Of a stretch of 64,000 nucleotides of DNA, positions 5,197 through 32,781 are shown piece by piece. The first letter of the stretch is position 1; every line of letters begins with the position of its first letter. This stretch comes from an uncultured Oscillospiraceae bacterium (GTDB lineage Bacteria > Bacillota > Clostridia > Christensenellales > CAG-138): NCBI GenBank assembly GCA_964476505.1, contig CAYZAW010000005.1:1205-65204 (forward strand). Reading direction: 5' to 3'. The notes under the pieces were generated by a model. It did not search any database, was not told the origin of the DNA, and was given only the letters and a program-made list of their open reading frames with translations. The position numbers and the translations under genes are program-made.

Positions 5197-5929
5197 GCTC
5201 AACAAACCCATACGCATAGGCATTGTACTGCTGTTCTGGCTCTTTGTTTGGCAGGGCGCTGCTTCCATTGTGGCAAGCCCGCTGCTGCTGCCCGGGCCGG
5301 TTGATACGCTTGTAACGCTTTTCCATCTGGCGGGAACGGCGGTATTTTGGAAAACCGTTTGCATGACGCTGCTGCGCGTGGCTGCAGGCTATCTTTTAGG
5401 TGCCGTTATCGGCACTCTCCTTGGGATACTCACTGCCGCCTCGCCCTTTTATCGCGATTTGCTTTCCCCACTTCGCACCGTTATCAAGGCAACGCCGGTT
5501 ACATCGTTCATTATACTGGTGCTGCTGTGGTTAACCGCCTCCGTTACGCCGGTGCTGATCGCCTTTTTGATGGTAGTACCCATGTTCTGGGCAACAACGT
5601 ATCAGGGAATCGTATCCGCCGACGTGCAGCTGTTGGAAATGGCGGAGGTATTTCATCTGGGGCGAAAGAAAACGCTGCGGCACATTTATCTGCCGAGCAT
5701 TCTGCCCCAATACATCGCCGTCAGTACAACGGCTCTGGGGTTTGCGTGGAAGTCCGGCGTAGCGGCGGAGGTGATCGCCTCCCCCGCGCTTTCCATCGGA
5801 CGCAGTTTGATTGAAAGCAAGCTGTATGTGGAAACGCCCGATTTGTTTGCCTGGACGCTGGCGGTCATTCTGCTTTCCGTTCTGTTGGAATGGCTGGTCG
5901 TTCGGCTTTTAGGGAGGGTAAAGGCATGA
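5186..5929 (+). CDS. ABC transporter permease (SsuC/TauC-like, BPD_transp_1)
   Basis: ORF 5126..5929. In-frame ATG 5186 overlaps the stop of the binding-protein gene. Multi-TM protein with an EAA-loop-like region (AAEVIASPALSIGRSL). Confidence 0.75.
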   Translation: MWARLNKPIRIGIVLLFWLFVWQGAASIVASPLLLPGPVDTLVTLFHLAGTAVFWKTVCMTLLRVAAGYLLGAVIGTLLGILTAASPFYRDLLSPLRTVIKATPVTSFIILVLLWLTASVTPVLIAFLMVVPMFWATTYQGIVSADVQLLEMAEVFHLGRKKTLRHIYLPSILPQYIAVSTTALGFAWKSGVAAEVIASPALSIGRSLIESKLYVETPDLFAWTLAVILLSVLLEWLVVRLLGRVKA

Positions 5930-6483
5930 TAGCATTGCGTGATATCACCTGCGGCTACCCGGGTAAACCCGCCGTACTCTCCGGTTTTTCCTGGGATATT
6001 CCAAACAAGGGCTGCGTTGGGATCATCGGCGCGTCAGGCTCCGGCAAAACCACGCTTTTAAAGCTACTCCTAGGGCGTATTGTGCCTGCAAGGGGAACCA
6101 TCAGCGGTTTGCAGGATAAGCGCATATCCGTTGTGTTTCAAGAGGACAGGCTGCTTTGGCATTTATCCGCCGCCGAAAACGTGGCGCTGGTAAACGATGA
6201 AAAAGACCCCCTGCCCCGTCTTTTGGATATGGAGTTAAAGGATGCCGCCAACATGCCCGTTTCCGCCCTGTCCGGCGGTATGCAGCGGCGCGTTGCCATA
6301 GCCCGGGCACTGCATTACGGCGGGGATATCCTGCTGCTAGACGAGCCCTTAAAGGGCTTGGACGACGCATTGAAGGAGCGGCTGATTCCCATTATCAAGG
6401 CGGCGTTTCCCCTCGTGATCGTTGTGCTGCATGAGCGGCACGAAGCCGAAGCCTTTGGCTGTGATACGGTGATCTCGCTGTAA
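5926..6483 (+). CDS. ABC transporter ATP-binding protein (short form)
   Basis: ORF 5890..6483. ATG 5926 forms an ATGA overlap with the permease stop. Walker A GASGSGKTT, signature LSGGMQRR, Walker B ILLLDEP. Confidence 0.85.
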   Translation: MIALRDITCGYPGKPAVLSGFSWDIPNKGCVGIIGASGSGKTTLLKLLLGRIVPARGTISGLQDKRISVVFQEDRLLWHLSAAENVALVNDEKDPLPRLLDMELKDAANMPVSALSGGMQRRVAIARALHYGGDILLLDEPLKGLDDALKERLIPIIKAAFPLVIVVLHERHEAEAFGCDTVISL

Positions 6484-22698: not shown

Positions 22699-23924
22699 TC
22701 GCTCTTTTACGAAAACGCTTTATCATCATCGCCATGTGTTCCGTGCTGGGGGTTCTGGTACTGATTATGGCGGCGCTGAACATCGCGAATTTTATCAGCG
22801 TATCCCACGATGCAGACCATGTGCTGCATTTTCTGGCGGATAACGCCGGTGCATTTCCTAAAACAGATGCTCCCATGCGAAAGCCGGACGGCTTTCGTGG
22901 ATTTACGCCGGAATCCCCTTATGTTACGCGTTTTTTCACCGTTACAGTGGATGAACAGGGCGAAGCATTAGCCGTAAATACGGGGCACATCCGGGCTGTC
23001 ACCTCCGACGATGCCGTATCGCTTGCCAAATCCGTTTGGACCAGTGGCAGCAAGGCTGGGTATCTTGGAGACTACCGCTATCTTGTAAACACCGAGCCGG
23101 AAGAAACAATGGTGTTGTTTTTAGACAACAGCCGGGAGCTTTCTTCCTTCCGTACATTTCTCTCCTTAAGTGCCTGCGTGTCTGCATTTTGCGCACTGGC
23201 GATATTCTTACTGGTTTGGTTTTTGTCGCGGCGCGCCATACGGCCTATTGCGGAAAGCTATGAGAAGCAAAAGCAGTTCATTACCGATGCCGGACACGAA
23301 ATCAAAACCCCGCTGACCGTGATCGAGGCCAATACGGAGGTCATCGAGATGGAGCACGGCAGCAGCAGTTGGACAAGAAGCATCCGCAATCAGGTGGAGC
23401 GCTTAACGGCGCTTACCAACAGCCTGATCACACTTTCCCGCATGGAGGAGGCAAACAACAATATTCAAATGACGGCGTTCTCCTTCTCGGATGCTGTTTT
23501 GGAAACCGCAAACACCTTTGCCGCGCAGGCAAAAACGCAGAATAAAGAGCTGACACTTACGGTGGAGCAGGGCGTTTCTTATACCGGAGATGAGCCTTCT
23601 ATCCGGCGGCTGGTATCCATACTGCTGGATAACGCTTTGAAATACTCGCCCACGCAAAGCAGCATTATCCTTTCCGTAAAAAAGCAGGGAAAAAGCCTGC
23701 TGCTCTCCTGTGAAAATACCGTGACCGAACCGATAGAGCCCGGCAGCCATCCGGAGCTGTTTGAGCGGTTTTATCGGCGAGACGCCTCCCGCAGCAGCGA
23801 AAGCGGCGGATACGGCATCGGATTATCCTTGGCAATGAGCATCGTAAAGCTGCATAAGGGAAAGCTAAGCGCAAAAAGCGAGAACGGAAGCGCACTTACC
23901 GTTCTTGCCGTATTTCCTGTTTAG
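22689..23924 (+). CDS. Sensor histidine kinase (two TM segments, HisKA, HATPase_c)
   Basis: H-box HEIKTPLTVI, N-box LLDNALKYSP, and a G-box region GGYGIGLS. The start overlaps the regulator stop; ATG 22695 is the alternative start. Confidence 0.9.
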   Translation: MQMIALLRKRFIIIAMCSVLGVLVLIMAALNIANFISVSHDADHVLHFLADNAGAFPKTDAPMRKPDGFRGFTPESPYVTRFFTVTVDEQGEALAVNTGHIRAVTSDDAVSLAKSVWTSGSKAGYLGDYRYLVNTEPEETMVLFLDNSRELSSFRTFLSLSACVSAFCALAIFLLVWFLSRRAIRPIAESYEKQKQFITDAGHEIKTPLTVIEANTEVIEMEHGSSSWTRSIRNQVERLTALTNSLITLSRMEEANNNIQMTAFSFSDAVLETANTFAAQAKTQNKELTLTVEQGVSYTGDEPSIRRLVSILLDNALKYSPTQSSIILSVKKQGKSLLLSCENTVTEPIEPGSHPELFERFYRRDASRSSESGGYGIGLSLAMSIVKLHKGKLSAKSENGSALTVLAVFPV

Positions 23925-23969
23925 TTTTGTTTCGTGCTGATTTTCGTGAGCGCACAATGAATGTCGGCG

Positions 23970-24731
23970 TTATCCGTTGAACTGCTCTGCTACGCCCATG
24001 AGGATTTGGCAAACCTCCTTGGTGCGCGCAAAGCCGGCGGATTTGGTCATATCCCGCTGGTTCATATACAGGCGACGGTTCACTTCGATCATTACCGAAA
24101 CCACCCGTCTGTCTTCTCCGTAATACTTCATGGGGGTTATGCTTCCGGCAAAGGGACTGTTCACCCGCACGGTATAGCCCAGCTCCCGCACCTTATTAAC
24201 AAGCGCGTCCCGCAGGGCAGGCGGCGTATGGTACGCGTCCGTACCGATATCAAAATCCGGCATGGAAAGCACGCAGTCCCACTTAAAGGGAATGGTGGAG
24301 TTGAAGGAATGCCCATCTAATATGGTGCATCTGCCGCAGGATTCCAATGCCGCATCCACGGCGGCTGTCAACCGCGCATGGTGCGGATCGTAATACTCCT
24401 TTAGTACATCGTTTCTTAGGTTTTCATCATACTCCCGCAGCTTGCGACCAAGCACGGTACGGGTATACATCAGCCCCATACCGCGCTTTGCCATGGGCTC
24501 CATATCATCGTTACGAAACCGCTCCACATCGCAAGCCAAGCGGCAAATAGGCGATACGACCATCCGCTCCGGCGCGGCAACGCCGTCAAACAGCTCGTCG
24601 CAAAAGGCATCCGTCATGCGGCACATATCCCGCCAAAGCGCCCGGTCGCTGATCAATATGCCTGCTTTGTATTTCTCCGGAATGTATATAGAGCTATGGG
24701 GCACATGCACGATAAAATGCTGTTCGCTCAT
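23970..24731 (-). CDS. N-formylglutamate amidohydrolase (FGase) family protein
   Basis: 253 aa. The N-terminal VHVPHSS...IP and later DGHSF patterns are typical of the FGase family. An ATGA overlap with the upstream ecfT indicates co-transcription. Confidence 0.65.
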   Translation of the reverse strand: MSEQHFIVHVPHSSIYIPEKYKAGILISDRALWRDMCRMTDAFCDELFDGVAAPERMVVSPICRLACDVERFRNDDMEPMAKRGMGLMYTRTVLGRKLREYDENLRNDVLKEYYDPHHARLTAAVDAALESCGRCTILDGHSFNSTIPFKWDCVLSMPDFDIGTDAYHTPPALRDALVNKVRELGYTVRVNSPFAGSITPMKYYGEDRRVVSVMIEVNRRLYMNQRDMTKSAGFARTKEVCQILMGVAEQFNG

Positions 24732-25618
24732 TTAACTAAAAGCTCTCCTGTAAACTGATTGATCCATGGGCACCAGTATTCGTAGGGGGGCTGGTGCAGG
24801 TTACGGCAGTACACGATGTAAAAAATGATTACGCAAACCACGGCGATGATGCAGCCGCGCACCACCCAATCCGCCTTGGCAGGCGGATGCTCCGAATACC
24901 ATGTGCGTTTTTTGTGCTTGCCGAAGCCGCGAAGATCCATACTGTTTGCAATGTTATCGACCTTGCCGAAGGACGTGATGATCAAAGGCACCAGCAAAAG
25001 CACATACTGCTTGATCTTTTTTCCGAGAGAAACGCGCTTGCCATCCAACTCCACCCCGCGCATTTGCAGAGAATTCTTAATGTCGGTAAAATCACGCGCC
25101 ACATCCGGTATGGTACGGAATGCCAGAGAAATGATATTGCACACCTTATAGGGCAGACCAATTCGGTTGAAGCCCGCGGCAATTTCGCTGGGGGTAATGG
25201 ATAGCACAAAGAATATGGCAACCGCAAAGCTGCACAGGCGCTTAAAGAACATTGCGCCCGCATACCAAAGCAGTTCTTTTGTTAGATACAGGCTGTCCGA
25301 AAAACGCACCAGCAGCGTTTCATGGCTTCCCACATAGGTAAGGGCGGAGTCGCTTGCCACTAAAAACAGCATGGTGCTGCCGATGATGCCGGCTGTTACG
25401 GTTAAAAAGCCCAACATAAACAGAATAGGCTTCCAATTTGGCTTCATGGAGATCACGCCGGCAATGCATAAGAGCAGCATGGGCAGCATCACACGCACGT
25501 CAAAGGTCATGATGATATAGACCGTCATGGTGATAAAGATTAGCGTTTTTGTTAGCCCGTTCAATTTGTGGATAAATGTGTTGCCTGGCGCGTAGCTGAT
25601 GATAAAACGATTATTCAA
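24728..25618 (-). CDS. ecfT: ECF transporter transmembrane (T) component, CbiQ/EcfT family
   Basis: 296-aa polytopic protein with the conserved coupling-helix region (AFRTIPDVARDFTDIKNSLQMRG). It overlaps the ATPase gene by 8 nt. Confidence 0.8.
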   Translation of the reverse strand: MNNRFIISYAPGNTFIHKLNGLTKTLIFITMTVYIIMTFDVRVMLPMLLLCIAGVISMKPNWKPILFMLGFLTVTAGIIGSTMLFLVASDSALTYVGSHETLLVRFSDSLYLTKELLWYAGAMFFKRLCSFAVAIFFVLSITPSEIAAGFNRIGLPYKVCNIISLAFRTIPDVARDFTDIKNSLQMRGVELDGKRVSLGKKIKQYVLLLVPLIITSFGKVDNIANSMDLRGFGKHKKRTWYSEHPPAKADWVVRGCIIAVVCVIIFYIVYCRNLHQPPYEYWCPWINQFTGELLVK

Positions 25619-27338
25619 CCGGTCTCACCATCCTTTCGTAACGGATGAAATGCTCAATAAACCCTTCCGGCGGCAGCTCCAGCTTGCGAGCCAGCGTGTA
25701 CAGGGAGGTCTGCTTAAGGTTGGCGCGCTTGATGATCTCGTCGTTGCTAAGCACGGAGAACACGCTGTCGTCCGCGATCAGCTCTCCGTCCGCAAACACG
25801 ATGGCGCGGTCGGTATTCTCGATCGCAAGATGCATATCATGCGTAATGAAAATGATGGTTTTTCCGTACTCGCAGTTAAGCTTGTTGATGAACCGGATAA
25901 TATCCGTATAATGCTTGTAATCCTGCCCGGCGGTGGGCTCGTCCAGTATGATGACCTCCGGCTCCAGCGCCATGATGCTGGCAATGGTCACGCGCTTTTT
26001 CTGCCCGTAGCTAACGGCATCCACCGGCCAGTTGCGCATTTTATACAGCTCGCAGGTGGTCAAAACATCCTTCACCCGGGTGTTGATTTCCTCCTGCGGC
26101 AGCTTTCGAAGGGAAAGAGCCAGCTCCACCTCCGCCTTGATGGTGTCCTTCACCAGCATTTGGTTTGGGTTTTGCATCACATACCCCACCCGCTCGCCAA
26201 TCTCCTTGATGGTGAGGTTCATGTAATCGCTGCCGTCTATATAGATCGCGCCCTTTCTGGGGCGGCTGATACCCGTGATAAGACGCGCCAGCGTGGATTT
26301 GCCCGCGCCGTTTTTTCCTACCACGGCAATGCGTTCCCCCTTGCGAATGGAAAGCGATACGTTACGAAGCACATCCTCTTCCATATAAGCAAAGGATACG
26401 TTTTCCACGCGGAGGGCTTCCTCGCCAAGGTTGGCGTCAATCTCGTTGGTAGGCTGCTCGTAAAAGGCCTTGAGCTTTGTTTTATCGTCCTCGGTGAGCG
26501 CCAGATTTTCAATATCGCAAAGCGTGGGTTTATCCGTTAAGGTACAGCCCGCGTATTTCATTGCCGTTACATACAGCGGTTCGCGAATGCCGTGCTGTTT
26601 TAATAACGGCCCGGTCAACAGCTCGTTTGGCGTTGTGTCCGCAACGATTCTGCCGTCGCTCATCAGTATAATGCGGTCGATATGCCGGTACAGCACATCC
26701 TCCAGCCGATGCTCCACGATCACCACCGTGCTGTTATTGCGTTTTTGTATGCTGTCGATCAGATCGATGGTGGTCACGCCCATTTGCGGGTCGAGCGCCG
26801 CAAGGGGTTCGTCGAATATCAATATGTTCGCGTCGTTGATCATGACCCCCGCGAGCGATACCTTTTGCTTTTGCCCGCCGGAAAGGTCAAAGGGCAGCGC
26901 CGTTAGGAATTTTTGCATTTCCACAACGGTGGCGCAGTCCAGTACGCGTTTTAGCATTTCCGCCCTAGGCACCATGTCGTTTTCCATGGCAAAGGCAATA
27001 TCCTCCCCCACGGAAAGGCCAACGAACTGCGCGTCGGAATCCTGCAAAACCGTTCCCACGTCTTTACTGAGTTTAAAAATAGAAAGCTGTTTTGTATCCT
27101 TGCCGCATACCGTGCAGCTTCCCTTTGTGGTACCGTGATAGGAAAAGGGTATCAATCCGTTGATGCAGCTTGCAAGCGTGCTTTTACCGCTGCCGGAGGG
27201 GCCTAGGATCAGTATTTTTTCGCCCTCGTAAACCGTCAAATTGATATCGTGCAATGTGAATTCGTTCTGAACCTTGTATTTGAATGAGAAGTCCTTAAAT
27301 TCGATTACGGGCTTTTTCATATGTACGGCTCCGTTCAT
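25611..27338 (-). CDS. ECF transporter fused double ATPase (EcfA-EcfA')
   Basis: Two complete ABC cassettes are present: GPSGSGKST/LSGGQKQK/ILIFDEP and GKNGAGKST/SYGQKKR/VIILDEP. The start may instead be ATG 27320 (MKKPVIEF), after GGAG. Confidence 0.9.
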   Translation of the reverse strand: MNGAVHMKKPVIEFKDFSFKYKVQNEFTLHDINLTVYEGEKILILGPSGSGKSTLASCINGLIPFSYHGTTKGSCTVCGKDTKQLSIFKLSKDVGTVLQDSDAQFVGLSVGEDIAFAMENDMVPRAEMLKRVLDCATVVEMQKFLTALPFDLSGGQKQKVSLAGVMINDANILIFDEPLAALDPQMGVTTIDLIDSIQKRNNSTVVIVEHRLEDVLYRHIDRIILMSDGRIVADTTPNELLTGPLLKQHGIREPLYVTAMKYAGCTLTDKPTLCDIENLALTEDDKTKLKAFYEQPTNEIDANLGEEALRVENVSFAYMEEDVLRNVSLSIRKGERIAVVGKNGAGKSTLARLITGISRPRKGAIYIDGSDYMNLTIKEIGERVGYVMQNPNQMLVKDTIKAEVELALSLRKLPQEEINTRVKDVLTTCELYKMRNWPVDAVSYGQKKRVTIASIMALEPEVIILDEPTAGQDYKHYTDIIRFINKLNCEYGKTIIFITHDMHLAIENTDRAIVFADGELIADDSVFSVLSNDEIIKRANLKQTSLYTLARKLELPPEGFIEHFIRYERMVRPVE

Positions 27339-27393
27339 AAAAATGACCAGTCGCGCTGGAAGCTGCGCCTTTTAAAGCGCTTAATAACAAAAG

Positions 27394-27419
27394 TCGGGGC
27401 GGAGCCTGCTCCGCCCCGA
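27394..27419 (-). terminator. Hairpin (possible partial terminator or attenuator) between the ECF S gene and the ATPase gene
   Basis: TCGGGGCGGAG-CCTG-CTCCGCCCCGA. On the minus strand it is followed by CTTTTGTTATT. Confidence 0.5.
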
Positions 27420-27442
27420 ACGAGGGTCGCGCGCGTTGTTGA

Positions 27443-28039
27443 TTACTCTTCTTCCTGTAAATTGCTGCGCTTCTTATAACGGGAGGCCAAGAGGAACAGC
27501 ACGGGGATGCCTACAATGATCAGCACCGCACAGTTGGAAATGCCGGATGCCAGAGACTGTAAGAACGTGAGCTCCAGATCGGCAGAGTAGAACAGGCTGG
27601 TCATGACCGGGGTGATGATGCCAAAGGCCAAAGCGTTGCCCACGATGCAGCAGGCCGCGTAGATCAGCGCATGCCACCATTTGAACACGCCGTCGGTAAT
27701 GCGTGCGCCGTAAATGGGCAGTAAGCCTACGAACAGCCCCAGGAAGCCGTTGCCAACAGTCCAGTCGAACCAGAAGCCCCAGCCGCCGATCAAGTCTGCC
27801 AAGAAGTTACCGATCAAAAGCGTTACCATGGCGGGAAGCGGCCCAAAGAGCGCGCCCACAATGACGGGAACGATCATGGCGCTGGTGAGGTAGGTATTGG
27901 TGAAAACAGGGATGCCGCCGTAGACCATCAGTACGCCGAACAAGGCGGCACCGATAGCGATGGCAACGATGGTTCTTGTGCTCCAAGTACCCAGCAGCAG
28001 CTTACCAAAGCCTTTCTTTTCGAGAGAGTTGCTTTCCAT
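27443..28039 (-). CDS. ECF transporter substrate-specific (S) component, substrate unknown
   Basis: 198 aa with about 6 TM helices, small size and genomic linkage to ecfA/ecfT. I cannot assign it to a named S-component family by eye. Confidence 0.65.
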   Translation of the reverse strand: MESNSLEKKGFGKLLLGTWSTRTIVAIAIGAALFGVLMVYGGIPVFTNTYLTSAMIVPVIVGALFGPLPAMVTLLIGNFLADLIGGWGFWFDWTVGNGFLGLFVGLLPIYGARITDGVFKWWHALIYAACCIVGNALAFGIITPVMTSLFYSADLELTFLQSLASGISNCAVLIIVGIPVLFLLASRYKKRSNLQEEE

Positions 28040-28158
28040 GAATGGTTACCTCCGTACATATGATTTAGTATTGCGGCGAAGGAATAAATCCCTCACTGTT
28101 AAATAATACAACAGTTATCCAGATTTTTCTACCCCGATATAACTACTATCATAAGAAA

Positions 28159-28998
28159 TTACAGCTTGCGAAACGCGATATGCCAGTGGGTACCGGTGCC
28201 AATGCTGTACGCCCGAGCGAAATTGCCCTGATTGATGGCAACGCCCATGCGCCCTAAGGAGTTGACATAGGTCAGCGGCTCGCCGATTCTTACATCCGCA
28301 AAGGAATGTCCGTAGCTGATGCGGTTATGGTACACAGGCATGGAGCCGTTTGTTATCTTCAACTCCACCTCCTCGCCGTAGCCCACGCCAAGGGTAAAGA
28401 ATTCTTCCTTGGTGATATTCGTCCAAAGGCTTCCGAAGCAGCCGTCAAGTATATCCACACAACCGGTCACGAGCCCGTCGCTTACCGTGACCTTGCCTAT
28501 CTCCACCTCAACGATATCTTCCACCGCAAGCTCGGGCCCAATATCCTCAAAGGCCGCCACGCCGGACGCCAGCTTGGCTCCCGTAAAGGCGTATACGTCC
28601 CGTCCGTGGAAGGTATAGCTGTATTCCGTGTTCTTCCTGCGGTGCTTGGCTTCGTCGATCTCGCGCACGGCGTTGATTCCCACAAAGCGCTTTAAATGGG
28701 TAAGCGTGCCGTTATCAGGAGTCACGATATAATGCCCCATGTTGGTTCGCGCCACAACGCTTTTTCGGTTGCTGCCAACGCCCGGGTCCACCACGGACAC
28801 GAATACCGTACCCTCCGGCCAGTACTCTACGGACTGGAACAGCCGGTAACTGGCTTCAAAGATGTCGTAAGGCGTAATGTCGTGGGTCAGGTTAAACAGC
28901 TTTAGCGTTTCGTCAATACTCAACGCTACGCCCTGCATGGCGGAAACCGCGCCGTCTGTTAAACCAAAATCGCTTTGCAGTATCAGTATTTTGTTCAT
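28159..28998 (-). CDS. SAM hydroxide adenosyltransferase / SAM hydrolase family protein (DUF62), copy 1
   Basis: ILQSDFGLTDGAVSAMQGV..., VSVVDPGVGSNRK and YIVTPDNGTLTH are hallmark DUF62 (fluorinase/chlorinase-related) motifs. Confidence 0.85.
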   Translation of the reverse strand: MNKILILQSDFGLTDGAVSAMQGVALSIDETLKLFNLTHDITPYDIFEASYRLFQSVEYWPEGTVFVSVVDPGVGSNRKSVVARTNMGHYIVTPDNGTLTHLKRFVGINAVREIDEAKHRRKNTEYSYTFHGRDVYAFTGAKLASGVAAFEDIGPELAVEDIVEVEIGKVTVSDGLVTGCVDILDGCFGSLWTNITKEEFFTLGVGYGEEVELKITNGSMPVYHNRISYGHSFADVRIGEPLTYVNSLGRMGVAINQGNFARAYSIGTGTHWHIAFRKL

Positions 28999-29010
28999 AT
29001 CGCGCCTCCG

Positions 29011-29841
29011 TTAGTTGGTGATGGTAATTTGCCAGTCCGGCCCGAACGAGAGACCAAGCTTTTTCATGGCGTTGTCCTCCCGCAGAGCGAAGCCTATGCG
29101 TTGCAGCTCGTTGATGTACAACACCGGCATACCCTGCGCCGCCTCGCCAAAGGTGCTGCAAAGTCGCACCGTATCAGAAAAGACCGTTTGTTCCCCATGG
29201 GTTACGGCAACATGCACGTTTTGCCCCGCCGCCATGCCTGCCTGCCCCAACATATCTGCCGGAATGCTGCTCCACAGGTTGCCAAAGTTGGGGTCGGCAA
29301 TTTCAAAAATGCCGCTGAGCCTGCCGGGCGCCGCTTCCGCGCCGGGAATGGGGTGTTTAACGATAGTTTGCACCGCATACGCCGGGCCTACCCCCGCATA
29401 GTCGATCACGCCTGCCGCCAGCCGCGCCGCCGTATAAGCAAACACGTCCCGCCCGTGAAACACGCTGCTGCCGGTTTGAAGCTTATTCACCCGTTCGTCG
29501 ATCTCACGCACCTCGGCAATGCCGTGATACGCTGCCGCGTGGGTAAGTGTTCCGTTATCCGGTGTCACGATGTAATACTCGTCTGCTGTTTTGGCAACGC
29601 AGGCCTTGCGGGAGGTACCCACGCCCGGGTCTACCACAGAAACGAATATGGTACCCACAGGCCAAAAGCGCATGGTTTGATACAGCCGGTACGAGGCGCT
29701 CCATGTATCAAAATGCGGCAGCTCATGCGTGCCGGTAATGATCTCCAGCGCAGCGTCAACGCTTTTTACCACGCCGTACATGGCGCATACAGCACCCTCC
29801 TGATAGGTAAAATCGCTTTGAAATACAAGCAGTGGCTTCAT
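29011..29841 (-). CDS. SAM hydroxide adenosyltransferase / SAM hydrolase family protein (DUF62), copy 2 (divergent tandem paralogue)
   Basis: Carries LVFQSDFTYQEGAVCAMYGV..., VSVVDPGVGTSRK and YIVTPDNGTLTH. It lies 12 nt upstream of copy 1. Confidence 0.85.
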   Translation of the reverse strand: MKPLLVFQSDFTYQEGAVCAMYGVVKSVDAALEIITGTHELPHFDTWSASYRLYQTMRFWPVGTIFVSVVDPGVGTSRKACVAKTADEYYIVTPDNGTLTHAAAYHGIAEVREIDERVNKLQTGSSVFHGRDVFAYTAARLAAGVIDYAGVGPAYAVQTIVKHPIPGAEAAPGRLSGIFEIADPNFGNLWSSIPADMLGQAGMAAGQNVHVAVTHGEQTVFSDTVRLCSTFGEAAQGMPVLYINELQRIGFALREDNAMKKLGLSFGPDWQITITN

Positions 29842-29973
29842 ATTGCCCTCCGTCTTTTCAATAGGAATTATATAGTAGTTTTCCTTGTATTACAATATTT
29901 TACTTACGTGCCAACAAAACCGCCCCATGCAGGAAATGCGCCATCTTTTGGCGTACAATATAAAGGAGCTTTC

Positions 29974-30684
29974 ATGCGTGATTTACGCAAGCGCTATGCT
30001 CATGCAAAGGAGAACGCCATGCGGGTGCACAGGATTTATCACAGCGGATTTTTGTTGGAAACCGAAAAAAGCTATTATCTGTTTGACTATTACAAGGGCG
30101 CTCTGCCGGCCCTTTCCCCCGAAAAGCCCATCGTGGTGTTTTCCAGCCATGCGCATCAGGATCATTTTAACCCGGAGGTATTCCGTCTGCTGCGGCAGGC
30201 GGGTATGCGAGAGGTGTTTGCGGTGCTGGCAAAAGACATTCCCGAAAAAAAGCATCCGGCAAGCGTGCCCGTTCTAAAGGTATATGCCAACAAGCAATAT
30301 ACACTGCCCCACGGCGAGCCCTTGGAAACGCTGCTTTCCACAGACAGCGGCGTTGCATATATCCTAACCACCCCCAAAGGCGTTGTGTACCATGCTGGGG
30401 ATCTTAATGACTGGACGTGGGACGGCGAAAGTGAGCAAAGCAACCGGAACATGCGCGGACGCTACCGCCATGAGATCGATTTGATTCGCGGGCGCAGCTT
30501 TGACATTGCCTTTGTGCCCCTCGACCCTCGGCAGGAAGCCCATTATGCAGACGGCATGCTGTACTTTCTTTCCACGGTATCCGCAAAGCAAGTCTACCCC
30601 ATGCATTATTGGGAGCAGACCGCCGTGGTACAGCGGTTCCTCGCGGAGTATCCACAGTATCAAGACAGTATCGTGATCCCCTAA
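29974..30684 (+). CDS. MBL-fold metallo-hydrolase
   Basis: This is the C-terminal third of the 569-aa track ORF 28975..30684. The real start is probably ATG 29974, after AAAGGAG. It contains a SSHAHQDHF metal-binding motif. The upstream two-thirds of the track ORF is antisense to the DUF62 copy 2 gene. Confidence 0.7.
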   Translation: MRDLRKRYAHAKENAMRVHRIYHSGFLLETEKSYYLFDYYKGALPALSPEKPIVVFSSHAHQDHFNPEVFRLLRQAGMREVFAVLAKDIPEKKHPASVPVLKVYANKQYTLPHGEPLETLLSTDSGVAYILTTPKGVVYHAGDLNDWTWDGESEQSNRNMRGRYRHEIDLIRGRSFDIAFVPLDPRQEAHYADGMLYFLSTVSAKQVYPMHYWEQTAVVQRFLAEYPQYQDSIVIP

Positions 30685-31613
30685 AGCACAGGCTGTTCCC
30701 GCTCCTTGCGGTAAAATGACCGCACAAATTCTATAAACTGCCGAACCGCCGGAGTGCCCGGCAAAGCGGAGGATTGCTCCTTTACATACAGCAGGTATAG
30801 TTCCCGCGTAGCCGCCGCGTTATCCGGCAGGGCAAATTGCAGCAGGCGCTTTTCCGCCACAAAGTTCTGCACAGCCTTTTCCGAAACAATGGAAACGCCC
30901 AAGCCCCCTGCTACTAAATTCTTGATCGATTCCTGATCGTTTACCCGGGCGGCCACCGTGATATCCTCCTCCCGAACGGTATGCAGCGCCAAGTACCGGT
31001 CTGCGCTTTTCTGGCTACCGCTCCCCTTTTCGCGTAAGATCATGGGTTCCCGTAGCAGCGCGTCCAGCGGCGTTACCGCTTCTTTTTGCATGGCAAGAAA
31101 GCGCTCGTTTACCGGGGTAATCAGCACCATTCTGTCTCGGTAAAAGGGCTCGCAGGCCAATAGCTCGTCCTGATACTCCATGCCGATCATGCCAATATCG
31201 AACAGACCGCTTCGCATGCCGTCTATCACGCCTGCGCTGTCGCTTTGGTGCACGGTAAAATACGTGTCCGGGTGCAGCTTGCCGTATTTGGGCAGCACCT
31301 CCGGCAGGATATATGCGGAAGGAATGGTGGACGCGCCCAGATGAATCAGGTTTTTTGTTTCGTCCGCCCAGCGCCTTAACAGCTTGCTTTCCAGCTCCAG
31401 CATGTGCGCGGCGCAGGTGTACAACTCCCAGCCCTTGGGGGTAATCTCGATATTTTTTGTGTCTCGTAGGATCAATCTGGTATGCAGCTCCTCCTCCAAA
31501 GCGCGGATATGCGCGCTGACAGTGGGCTGCGAGGTATAGGTCGCTTCCGCCGCCTTGGTAAAGCTTTTTTGCTCCACCACGGCTGCAAAGGAGCGCAGCT
31601 GCTTCAATTCCAT
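30681..31613 (-). CDS. LysR-family transcriptional regulator (selenium-cluster associated)
   Basis: N-terminal HTH MELKQLRSFAAVVEQKSFTKAAEATYTSQPTVSAHIRALEEEL plus a LysR substrate-binding domain. Confidence 0.9.
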   Translation of the reverse strand: MELKQLRSFAAVVEQKSFTKAAEATYTSQPTVSAHIRALEEELHTRLILRDTKNIEITPKGWELYTCAAHMLELESKLLRRWADETKNLIHLGASTIPSAYILPEVLPKYGKLHPDTYFTVHQSDSAGVIDGMRSGLFDIGMIGMEYQDELLACEPFYRDRMVLITPVNERFLAMQKEAVTPLDALLREPMILREKGSGSQKSADRYLALHTVREEDITVAARVNDQESIKNLVAGGLGVSIVSEKAVQNFVAEKRLLQFALPDNAAATRELYLLYVKEQSSALPGTPAVRQFIEFVRSFYRKEREQPVL

Positions 31614-31617
31614 GTTG

Positions 31618-32781
31618 CTACCTCCCGCATGTCAGCGCGGCAAGCGCGGTTAGCGCCGTATCCACTTCTTCTTGTGTGTTCCACCAGCCAAAGGAGAACC
31701 GAATCGTGCCTGTGGGGTAGGTGCCCAGCGTTTTATGGGCGGCAGGCGCACAATGCAGCCCAACGCGGGTCATAACACCGTAGGCTTCATCCAACCGGTA
31801 GGCAACGTCCGCAACGTCCTGCCCGCATGTTGTAAGCGATACTACGCCTATTCGTCCATCACCGTTGGGTCTTCCGCAAACAGTGATGCGCCCGTCCTTT
31901 GCCATTGGGTCAAGACCTGCTAAAAAGCGTTCCGTAAGCAGGCGTTCGTGGGCACAGATGCGGTCTATGCCAGTATCCCGCAAAAATCCCAGCGATGCAT
32001 GCAGGCCCACAATACCCGGTAAATTCATGGTGCCCGGTTCAAACCTGTCCGGCATAAAGGCAGGCACATCCTCCCTGTGGCTGATGCTTCCTGTGCCGCC
32101 GGACAGCAACGGTTCTATTTTTTCTATCATATCCTCCTGCAAAATAAACCCGCCGATCCCCTGCGGCCCTAGCAACCCCTTATGCCCGGTAAACGCCAGC
32201 GCGTCGATATGCATTTGTTCCATATCGATGGGGCAAACGCCCGCCGTTTGGGCGCTGTCCACAATAAAGCGCAGGCCGTTCCTTTGGCAAAACGCGCCCA
32301 TTTCCAAAACGGGCAGCAGCGTTCCGCAAACATTGCTGGCGTGGGTCATAACAACTGCCTTGGTGTTTTTTTGCAGCAGCGGCAGCGCGTCCTCCACGCG
32401 CAGGCTGCCGTCCTCTCCGCAGGGAATACGGGATACGGATATGCCGTGCTTTTCCAGCTGCCCCAACGGACGCATCACCGCGTTATGCTCCATGGAGGTT
32501 GTGATCACGTGATCGCCCGGCTGTAAAAAGCCCTTGAGTATCACATTTAGGCTCTCCGTTACGTTTTTTGTAAACGCCACGCATTTTATTGCCGGGCCGT
32601 GGAACAACTCCGTTAGCATCTGCCGGGTTTCATACACGGTTTCTTCCACGCGGTATGCGTTTTTATATCCGCCCCGCTGGATGTTGCAACCAAGCTGCGT
32701 CATATATGCATACACCGCCTCCGCTACCGCCGGCGGTTTGGGAAATGATGTGCTTCCGTTATCAAAATAAATAGCTTTCAT
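31618..32781 (-). CDS. Class V aminotransferase-fold cysteine desulfurase / selenocysteine lyase-like protein
   Basis: PLP-lysine context FTGHKGLLGPQG, catalytic Cys loop GLHCAPAAHKTLG, and location in the selD cluster. Confidence 0.8.
   Translation of the reverse strand: MKAIYFDNGSTSFPKPPAVAEAVYAYMTQLGCNIQRGGYKNAYRVEETVYETRQMLTELFHGPAIKCVAFTKNVTESLNVILKGFLQPGDHVITTSMEHNAVMRPLGQLEKHGISVSRIPCGEDGSLRVEDALPLLQKNTKAVVMTHASNVCGTLLPVLEMGAFCQRNGLRFIVDSAQTAGVCPIDMEQMHIDALAFTGHKGLLGPQGIGGFILQEDMIEKIEPLLSGGTGSISHREDVPAFMPDRFEPGTMNLPGIVGLHASLGFLRDTGIDRICAHERLLTERFLAGLDPMAKDGRITVCGRPNGDGRIGVVSLTTCGQDVADVAYRLDEAYGVMTRVGLHCAPAAHKTLGTYPTGTIRFSFGWWNTQEEVDTALTALAALTCGR

Follow-up and report, generated by a model that had tools for sequence, protein, structure and literature searches.

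DUF62 enzymes cleave SAM to adenosine and methionine. Members of the family differ in epimer preference, and what they do physiologically is a matter of open debate (10.1101/2025.08.29.672840; PMC12120602). Among transporters, MtsTUV/MtsABC (TCDB 3.A.1.29), MtaTUV (3.A.1.33) and HtsTUV (3.A.1.31) have been predicted to be group I ECF systems belonging to the methionine regulon (PMC3654945, PMC4239095, PMC3228920). The window analyzed here, a 64,000-nucleotide stretch of DNA from an uncultured Oscillospiraceae bacterium, contains an operon in which two DUF62 genes lie together with ECF transporter genes and the gene for an FGase-family amidohydrolase. This conserved operon joins two orphans, the widespread DUF62 family, whose role is disputed (PMC12120602), and an ECF S component family for which cargo has only been predicted, and it merges the questions of DUF62 role and S component cargo into one set of questions on binding, uptake and hydrolysis. 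On balance, we favor the reading that the operon is an import-and-cleave module that scavenges methionine and adenosine from SAM-type compounds, the identity of the cargo being deduced from the partner genes only.

The operon consists of six genes on the minus strand, in the order DUF62a (29011..29841, 276 aa), DUF62b (28159..28998, 279 aa), the S component (27443..28039, 198 aa), the fused EcfA-A' ATPase (EcfAA'; 25611..27338, 575 aa), EcfT (24728..25618, 296 aa) and the amidohydrolase (23970..24731, 253 aa). This order, with a hairpin between the S component and EcfAA', had been proposed in a sequence-only reading and was confirmed by the open reading frames and by Pfam and NCBIfam assignments (PF01887 with PF20257 twice, PF07155/NF010182, two PF00005 domains with PF12558, PF02361 and PF05013). 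The coordinates also agree with the gaps of 12 nt between DUF62a and DUF62b and 119 nt between DUF62b and the S gene, and with the overlaps of 8 nt between EcfAA' and EcfT and 4 nt (ATGA) between EcfT and the amidohydrolase, that it had given. It had further pointed to a gene for an MBL-fold hydrolase (29995-30684; weak PF13483 match, 30 bits), which is indeed divergent, but which has no homolog in any related locus and does not appear to be part of the system.

Upstream of DUF62a, a sigma-70-like promoter candidate (TTGTAA-17-TATAAT, 29867..29895, minus strand) has 10 of 12 matches and is weak, since such sites occur in this region as often as expected by chance. The 119 nt that separate DUF62b from the S gene (28040..28158, minus strand) contain a weak promoter-like site (28131-28103) and matched no known RNA family in Rfam. 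Directly 3' of the S gene is the terminator-like hairpin (27394..27419, minus strand), rich in G+C and followed by a T tract. As claimed previously, it is well formed, with 11 pairs, 9 of them G-C, over 27419-27394 and then CTTTTGTTAT. A hairpin of different sequence occupies the same position in related loci L014, L019, L023, L024, L026, L028-L031, L036, L045, L046 and L071, and the element probably lowers transcription of the EcfAA'-EcfT-FGase part relative to the DUF62a-DUF62b-S part. Metatranscriptome contigs identical to the window, low in depth and possibly including carried-over DNA, contain parts of each of the six genes. They span the DUF62a/DUF62b junction and the hairpin, with one contig (27576-28081) extending 42 nt into the DUF62b/S spacer and another (27252-27620) running through the post-S hairpin.

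The private S-A-A-T transporter proposed from the sequence is borne out as a gene set, since the S component, the fused EcfAA' and EcfT are encoded in one operon. An S fold, two ATPase domains and EcfT/CbiQ in a single operon correspond to the gene content of group I (dedicated) ECF systems. The S component is a divergent subtype of PF07155/NF010182 (PRK13661) with an AxxxA motif at residue 28, and its AlphaFold2 (AF2) model (pLDDT 89.7) gave ECF S components as all of the top 24 Foldseek matches. EcfAA' (TIGR04520, 428 bits) has two PF00005 domains, PF12558 and a DUF3744 linker. Its Walker A (residues 46 and 341) and Walker B motifs are each present twice, and the signature motif reads LSGGQ at residue 152 but VSYGQ at residue 442. 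The transmembrane coupling component EcfT, a member of the CbiQ family, contains the xRx motifs FRT (residue 167) and MRG (residue 186).

A survey of gene neighborhoods showed that DUF62 and the ECF genes stay linked much more often than chance would allow. The S protein led to 80 species-level loci, and in 67 of them DUF62 genes lie in the same-strand cluster, in one to four copies. The remaining 13 comprise 10 loci cut by contig ends and 3 without DUF62, and one of these three genomes (L014) carries a DUF62a-DUF62b pair on another contig. In an even sample of 300 Clostridia, 11 genomes contained both DUF62 and the S family, 1 contained DUF62 only and 2 contained the S family only (Fisher p 2.5e-17); the corresponding numbers for 250 evenly sampled Bacilli were 12 (11 adjacent), 2 and 6 (Fisher p 1.7e-14). 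Where the two co-occur in these samples they are nearly always adjacent, and in six checked genomes every DUF62 copy lies within the cluster. Dozens of anaerobic species have this package. No further gene family recurs in the flanks of related loci, indicating that the module is self-contained. The S family extends beyond its partnership with DUF62, since its core, highest-scoring form is encoded without DUF62 in six Bacilli and two Clostridia genomes.

The absence of a recognizable riboswitch in the leaders, remarked upon in the sequence-only reading, held in a permissive Rfam scan of 23000-32000. The leader of the window operon has no S-box (RF00162) and is not homologous to the S-box leaders of its relatives. 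Five Oscillospiraceae operons with the gene order of the window (L019, L024, L026, L028 and L029) are controlled by a SAM-I riboswitch (77-81 bits) directly upstream of DUF62a, with a terminator platform in L024, L026 and L029. The riboswitch is limited to these five of about 90 related loci and is reduced to a decayed remnant in L025. The 61 loci scanned with Rfam contained no T-box or other known leader. In the window genome, the single S-box is at metK. With metK and a short MetH in its genome, the organism is not auxotrophic for SAM and not obviously so for methionine. The SAM-I riboswitches of the five sister operons point to the acquisition of methionine/SAM rather than to mere catabolism. 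The earlier proposal, import and catabolism of SAM or of an adenosyl- or amide-containing metabolite, is partly supported. Since the package recurs, sometimes under a SAM riboswitch, methionine scavenging from imported SAM-like compounds is probable.

We infer what is imported, which way the flux runs, what the amidohydrolase does and how DUF62a and DUF62b divide the labor. The group I ECF transporter would import a scarce SAM-type compound, which may be SAM, the inactive (R,S) epimer of SAM, a closely related adenosyl-sulfonium derivative, or more than one of these. In the cytoplasm, both DUF62 hydrolases would use water to replace the thioether amino acid at C5', leaving adenosine and either methionine or one of its derivatives. 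The amidohydrolase, an FGase in this operon and an M20 dipeptidase elsewhere, may strip an acyl or peptidyl group, either off the imported compound itself or off the product that contains methionine, for a predicted net yield of methionine and adenosine, and the post-S hairpin would probably set expression of DUF62a-DUF62b-S above that of EcfAA'-EcfT-FGase. Alternatively, SAM may be imported intact as a cofactor, with DUF62 only proofreading the pool: environmental SAM accumulates the (R,S) epimer, which is useless and inhibitory and would be destroyed. This reading overlaps with the scavenging model, from which it departs solely in what becomes of (S,S)-SAM. It would fit the typical use of ECF systems as high-affinity cofactor importers, the preference of characterized DUF62 enzymes for (R,S)-SAM (10.1101/2025.08.29.672840; PMC12120602), and repression by a SAM riboswitch, which suits a SAM-supply operon. 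Nonetheless, we regard it as unlikely, since the presence of metK in all carriers checked speaks against dependence on imported SAM, and proofreading requires neither several diverged paralogs (up to four) nor an amidohydrolase.

DUF62a and DUF62b are the only two DUF62 genes in the window genome. Both proteins contain SAM_HAT_N (PF01887, 154 and 166 bits) and SAM_HAT_C (PF20257, 55 and 73 bits), and the nearest solved structures are 2ZBU, 7CCG, SalL and PH0463. Neither reached an equivalog-level match to the characterized (R)-SAM hydrolases in NCBIfam, scoring 123 and 145 bits against NF058624 (cut-off 350) and 72 and 124 bits against NF053629 (cut-off 470). The Asp-Arg-His triad, which activates water, defines the hydrolases and is missing from halogenases (PMC10491745), is kept as Asp71/Arg78/His129 in DUF62a and Asp71/Arg78/His131 in DUF62b. 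Conservation of Asp and Arg is at least 90% in both clades; for His it is at least 90% among b-clade proteins and 60-90% among those of the a clade. The copies had been described as diverged with shared QSDF, VVDPGVG and TPDNG motifs; these motifs are found in both, at 41% identity between the proteins. QSDF and FG(N/S)LW, which from the fluorinase structures we take to be adenosine-binding motifs, are also kept in both paralogs. DUF62b has the canonical C-terminal motif (NSL at residue 246, INQG at residue 255). In DUF62a, NEL... replaces NS...INQG, a loss that characterizes the a clade. The two clades, which differ at this motif, are each monophyletic across operon types.

The divergence had been taken to suggest a heteromer or two substrates. 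Some operons have a single DUF62 gene, which belongs to the a clade (Treponema L020 and L027), the b clade (L012, L097 and L100) or another clade; this favors two specificities over an obligate heteromer. DUF62a and DUF62b most likely differ in specificity at the amino-acid end or the sulfonium center, and probably do not constitute one obligate heteromer. An obligate heterotrimer whose active sites lie at the a/b interfaces would be in keeping with the adjacency of the two genes and their co-inheritance in about 40 species, with the degraded C-terminal motif of the a clade, which would follow if activity persisted at only some of the interfaces, and with the fluorinase and PH0463 structures, in which the active sites reportedly lie between subunits. 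The DUF62 family does form trimers (PMC12120602). The single-gene operons, the full triad in both copies and the variation in copy number from 1 to 4 nevertheless make such an enzyme quite unlikely.

The amidohydrolase linkage noted in the sequence proved to be a recurrent third partnership. The slot after EcfT is filled in 49 of the 67 DUF62-containing loci, either by an FGase (in the closest clade) or by a PepV/Sapep M20 dipeptidase, and never by both. Judged by sequence, the window FGase (PF05013, 155 bits) is not a HutG ortholog, scoring 67 bits against TIGR02017 (cut-off 278.75), and hutU is absent from the window genome and from four of five FGase-type relatives, which leaves no histidine-utilization context. 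SAM has no amide bond, and thus SAM alone does not explain the amidohydrolase. This enzyme might instead cleave a non-adenosyl cargo, such as an N-acyl-methionine, a methionine dipeptide or a similar methionine derivative, with DUF62 performing co-regulated housekeeping repair of endogenous (R,S)-SAM. S-box control suits any methionine source, the amidohydrolase is frequent in these loci, and streptococcal methionine ABC-transporter operons also have an M20 hydrolase gene. However, housekeeping repair leaves unexplained both the near-confinement of DUF62 to transporter-containing genomes in Clostridia and Bacilli and its adjacency to the transporter. Furthermore, at least 18 loci contain DUF62 without an amidohydrolase, making DUF62 the more constant partner. 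We regard this alternative as very unlikely.

The S component matches PF07155 (103 bits), a family that also includes PdxU and PdxU2 (PMC9997740), and NF010182, "ECF-type riboflavin transporter substrate-binding protein" (129.6 bits, cut-off 99). The sequence-only reading would have been refuted by an S component from a family whose cargo is known and unrelated; membership of such a family is not credible here. A profile of the S family gave only a marginal match to solved RibU (3P5N; E 0.11) and no match to PdxU2/HmpT, while the fold of the AF2 model is approximately equidistant from FolT, RibU, BioY, ThiT, PdxU2 and PanT (14-22% identity, Foldseek). Import of riboflavin or, as for other PF07155 members, vitamin B6 beside unrelated enzymes is therefore extremely improbable despite these family matches, given also that no FMN riboswitch (RF00050) was found at the window operon or the related operons searched with Rfam, that genome G549 has a separate FMN-riboswitch-controlled PF12822 (RibU-type) S gene adjoining its DUF62-ECF operon, and that the statistical tie of the S family is to DUF62. 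The "riboflavin" label is unsupported, and the database name of this S family is probably wrong.

PRK13661/PF07155-type dedicated ECF systems are currently auto-annotated as riboflavin transporters. We know of no SAM uptake outside obligate intracellular bacteria. We tentatively raise the possibility that these systems represent the first SAM-family uptake of free-living bacteria, that DUF62 of Firmicutes and spirochaetes works in catabolic salvage, with SAM epimers or derivatives taken up from outside as substrates, rather than in repair of endogenous (R,S)-SAM, and that the mutually exclusive FGase/M20 slot implies a natural amide-linked SAM or methionine conjugate, undescribed as a nutrient. 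If the cargo is indeed of the SAM type, gut, rumen and digester anaerobes would have an additional methionine- and SAM-scavenging route.

In the accessible literature, which excludes the primary 2009 and 2004 comparative-genomics papers, we found no description of the tie to DUF62 or of the FGase/M20 slot. By description, the Mts, Mta and Hts modules resemble the window operon in having a dedicated S component, a duplicated ATPase and a T component in one operon, and a cargo that is at most predicted. Some of their members are regulated by methionine or SAM, as with the MetJ boxes of mtsABC in Vibrionales, and five relatives of the window operon have an S-box. HutG (PDB 2Q7S; TIGR02017) shares the PF05013 fold over the full length of the window FGase, which differs in falling below the equivalog cut-off, in the lack of urocanase in its genome and in its location inside an ECF operon, where an M20 dipeptidase takes its place in other lineages. 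The characterized DUF62 enzymes (PH0463, MJ1651, SaDUF62/StDUF62 of Salinispora, SaciSAMH and HvSAMH) likewise have PF01887 with PF20257, the triad, QSDF and FG(N/S)LW. They are single genes interpreted as acting in endogenous (R,S)-SAM repair, whereas the window proteins are two anciently diverged paralogs tied to an importer and score far below the equivalog cut-offs. Finally, the queuosine salvage system QueK-QrtT-QueL of Clostridioides difficile (PMC11477304) also combines an ECF S gene with cytoplasmic enzymes that dismantle an imported nucleoside, and it is regulated by a riboswitch responsive to the end product. It has another cargo and other enzymes, and QrtT operates on a shared ECF core, whereas the window system has its own EcfAA' and EcfT.

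ORF calling in the window reproduced exactly the six minus-strand genes at 23970-29841, with the spacings and overlaps reported in the sequence-only reading, and the hairpin with a T tract 3' of the S gene was confirmed. The operon runs DUF62a, DUF62b, ECF S component, fused EcfAA', EcfT and an FGase-family amidohydrolase (a-b-S-AA'-T-FGase). Pfam/NCBIfam searches assigned the first two proteins to SAM_HAT_N plus SAM_HAT_C (DUF62), the S component to PF07155/NF010182, the ATPase to a fused double ABC protein with a DUF3744 linker, EcfT to the CbiQ type and the FGase-family protein to PF05013 over its full length. The signature of the second ATPase domain of EcfAA' (25611-27338, residue 442) is VSYGQ rather than LSGGQ, the first domain being canonical, which suggests from sequence that one nucleotide site is degenerate. 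No further DUF62 genes were found elsewhere in the window's genome (2.2 Mb, 117 contigs), whose closest named relatives are uncultured Oscillospiraceae. DNA near-identical to the window is present in metagenomes from anaerobic digesters, bioreactors and wastewater. Low-depth metatranscriptome contigs with 100% identity to the window, for which DNA carry-over is possible, cover pieces of all six genes and run across the a/b junction as well as the hairpin after S. The MBL-fold hydrolase, LysR and two-component genes were rejected as parts of the system, since they do not recur in relatives. A 569-aa ORF on the plus strand (28975-30684), antisense through DUF62a, is an artifact of extending the MBL-fold gene upstream of its real start near 29995; 17 loci have comparable shadow ORFs antisense to DUF62b.

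The sequence-only reading had made its proposal depend on the linkage of DUF62 to the transporter being conserved in other genomes, and the linkage is conserved by two independent measures. A scan based on the S protein, with one genome per species, yielded 80 loci, annotated with the window's proteins, from Oscillospiraceae, Lachnospiraceae, Erysipelotrichaceae, Treponema and other spirochaetes, and the cultured Thermoclostridium caenicola (DSM 19027, locus L042). In 67 of these loci, S-AA'-T shares a same-strand cluster with between one and four DUF62 genes; ten are interrupted by a contig end, and DUF62 is missing with full flanks in only three. One of the three is L014, from the nearest relative, whose a-b pair lies on a separate contig, next to the two-component genes that are also found beside the window operon. 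This arrangement is a rearrangement with its break between DUF62b and S. The a-b pair of this relative (L108, G556:C8, 4318-8176) is 3' of, and on the same strand as, the genes for the response regulator and the histidine kinase, with S-AA'-T-FGase on the other contig (L014). Downstream of the latter genes are a NiCo riboswitch (L014:14548-14651, 76 bits) and a match to PYLIS_3, the mttB pyrrolysine insertion element (L014:18328-18427, 50 bits). Clustering of all flanking ORFs revealed no other recurrent gene family, and thus the DUF62-ECF module is self-contained.

The second measure used even whole-genome samples, independent of the S-protein scan. Among 300 Clostridia, 12 genomes have PF01887 and 13 have a match to NF010182 that passes its cut-off; both occur in 11, with the genes adjacent in all 11 (Fisher p = 2.5e-17 for co-occurrence). 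The corresponding figures for 250 Bacilli are 14 and 18 genomes, both families in 12 and adjacency in 11 of the 12 (p = 1.7e-14). Given this co-occurrence and adjacency in both samples, DUF62 in Clostridia and Bacilli is essentially an accessory of this ECF transporter. The reverse dependence is looser: S-AA'-T occurs without DUF62 in eight genomes, in each case with the core form of the S family, the one that scores highest. Genes neighboring the S-only loci (including those of genomes G097 and G095) were uninformative.

Five Oscillospiraceae operons with exactly the gene order of the window (L019, L024, L026, L028 and L029) carry a SAM-I riboswitch (S-box; 77-81 bits, Rfam) directly upstream of DUF62a, with a clear terminator 3' of the aptamer in L024, L026 and L029. 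SAM-repressed expression, as predicted from the S-box, assigns the operon of these five species to the regulon that supplies methionine and SAM. Searched across 100 sources (1.48 Mb in total), a covariance model of these aptamers found only the five operon aptamers, the metK leader of the window's genome and a remnant in L025, a locus closely related to L019 and L028, which both carry the riboswitch. The remnant (L025:940-1069; 22 bits, E 0.002) is just upstream of DUF62a and is possibly a decaying riboswitch. A separate search of six more loci added only L103, itself a training sequence, where a SAM-I riboswitch (5898-5996, 64 bits) lies directly 3' of a lone DUF62b at a contig end of genome G378. 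The S-AA'-T genes of G378 are on a separate 4-kb contig, and no overlap between the two contigs was found that would place the S-box before S-AA'-T.

The window operon itself was described from sequence as having no recognizable riboswitch in either leader, and a permissive Rfam scan of 23000-32000 together with the S-box covariance model bore this out. No homology was seen between its leader and the S-box leaders of relatives, and the single SAM-I riboswitch of its genome precedes metK (G000:C98:1119-2490). Rfam scans of 61 loci found no T-box or other known leader. FGase-type operons, along with some of the others, have the strong hairpin and T run right after S at a conserved position but not with a conserved sequence, as would be expected if partial termination kept a-b-S transcripts above those of AA'-T-FGase. 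The S-AA' spacers of L023, L024, L026, L030 and L031 contain, besides the terminator-like hairpin, a second long one (GGCATAAAAGA...TTTTATGCC), which matches no Rfam family and has no counterpart in the window.

The NCBIfam name of the S family is riboflavin transporter component, and the window protein scores above its cut-off. Within the limits of sequence data, riboflavin or B6 as cargo is nevertheless rejected. Rfam detected no FMN riboswitch at these DUF62-ECF operons, phmmer found no solved structure matching the S component, and the S-family profile reached RibU at only E 0.11. A confident AF2 model of the S component lies at roughly the same distance from FolT, RibU, BioY, ThiT, PdxU2 and PanT. 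Two tryptophans of the S component, W90 and W93, are invariant. In one member of the Bacilli (G549, L101:2213-2940), an FMN riboswitch controls a 178-aa RibU-type (PF12822) S gene that is separate from, and convergent with, the adjoining DUF62-ECF operon. PF07155 is heterogeneous, since it also includes PdxU and PdxU2 (PMC9997740). With the riboflavin label unsupported by riboswitch, profile or fold, the S component is no convincing member of a family with a known unrelated cargo, an assignment that would have told against the import reading.

DUF62a and DUF62b of the window share 41% identity. When 142 DUF62 proteins, drawn from all loci, were placed in a tree, first and second copies fell into two separate clades, each across all operon types, indicating that the duplication is old; extra clades occur where operons hold three or four copies. 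Five loci (L035, L036, L037, L045 and L046) have four tandem DUF62 genes 3' of EcfT, the last of them just half as long, roughly (about 160 aa covered in tblastn). The divergence from which the sequence-only reading suggested a heteromer or two substrates is genuine; an obligate heteromer is disfavored by single-copy operons, which are a-type only in L020 and L027 and b-type only in L012, L097 and L100. Both clades retain the Asp-Arg-His triad that tells hydrolases from halogenases (PMC10491745). QSDF, TPDNG and FG(N/S)LW are likewise retained in both. The C-terminal NS...AINQG family motif is present in the b clade, and the a clade has NEL without INQG, as well as two changes close to the N terminus, D15E and G12T. 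From fluorinase structures, we take QSDF and FG(N/S)LW to contact adenosine and the Ser of NS to contact the methionine carboxylate, and by this analogy the a copy probably takes a substrate that differs at the amino-acid end. A division of a and b by sulfonium configuration is also possible, since preference for SAM epimers differs within the family (PMC12120602).

FGase homologs follow EcfT in the closest clade of the window (L014-L031, including two Treponema loci). The same slot is occupied in 36 other loci by a PepV/Sapep-type M20 dipeptidase; the two never occur together in one locus, and 18 DUF62-containing loci have neither. Filling of one slot by two unrelated metallo-amidohydrolase families suggests a real amide-cleaving step in the module, one not accounted for by SAM itself. 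Identity of the FGase with HutG was rejected: it scores 67 bits against an equivalog cut-off of 278.75, and urocanase (hutU) is missing both in the window's genome and in four of the five FGase-type relatives examined.

In the mechanism we propose, the ECF module would import a scarce SAM-type compound, the DUF62 enzymes would split it into adenosine and methionine or a methionine derivative, and the amidohydrolase would take off an acyl or peptidyl group, for a net gain of methionine and adenosine. Such a mechanism would explain why the genomic link is exclusive, why an S-box controls some of the operons and why the catalytic residues are kept. SAM auxotrophy was rejected, metK being present in all 14 genomes checked. 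Loss of methionine synthase is not supported either: MetE is absent from the window's genome, although a short form of MetH (about 800 aa; C9:11308-13656) is present. With metK and the short MetH in this organism, the module would serve scavenging, not obligatory supply.

Taken together, DUF62-ECF is a real, widely conserved module, predicted to import and cleave, and the window copy is its FGase variant without a riboswitch. A full-text literature search, with Rodionov 2009 and 2004 outside its coverage, revealed no publication that links DUF62 to ECF transporters. By description, not by sequence, the module is like MtsTUV (mtsABC), dedicated ECF modules of the methionine regulon, MtaTUV, a predicted methylthioadenosine system, and HtsTUV, of unknown cargo (PMC3654945, PMC4239095, PMC3228920); no experimentally shown substrate for any of the three was found in literature other than their defining papers. 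The general kind, an ECF importer with cytoplasmic salvage enzymes, is already known. The module opens two questions to direct test, the contested role of DUF62 and what an orphan ECF family carries. Conceptually, its closest characterized analog is the riboswitch-controlled QueK-QrtT-QueL operon for queuosine salvage (PMC11477304).
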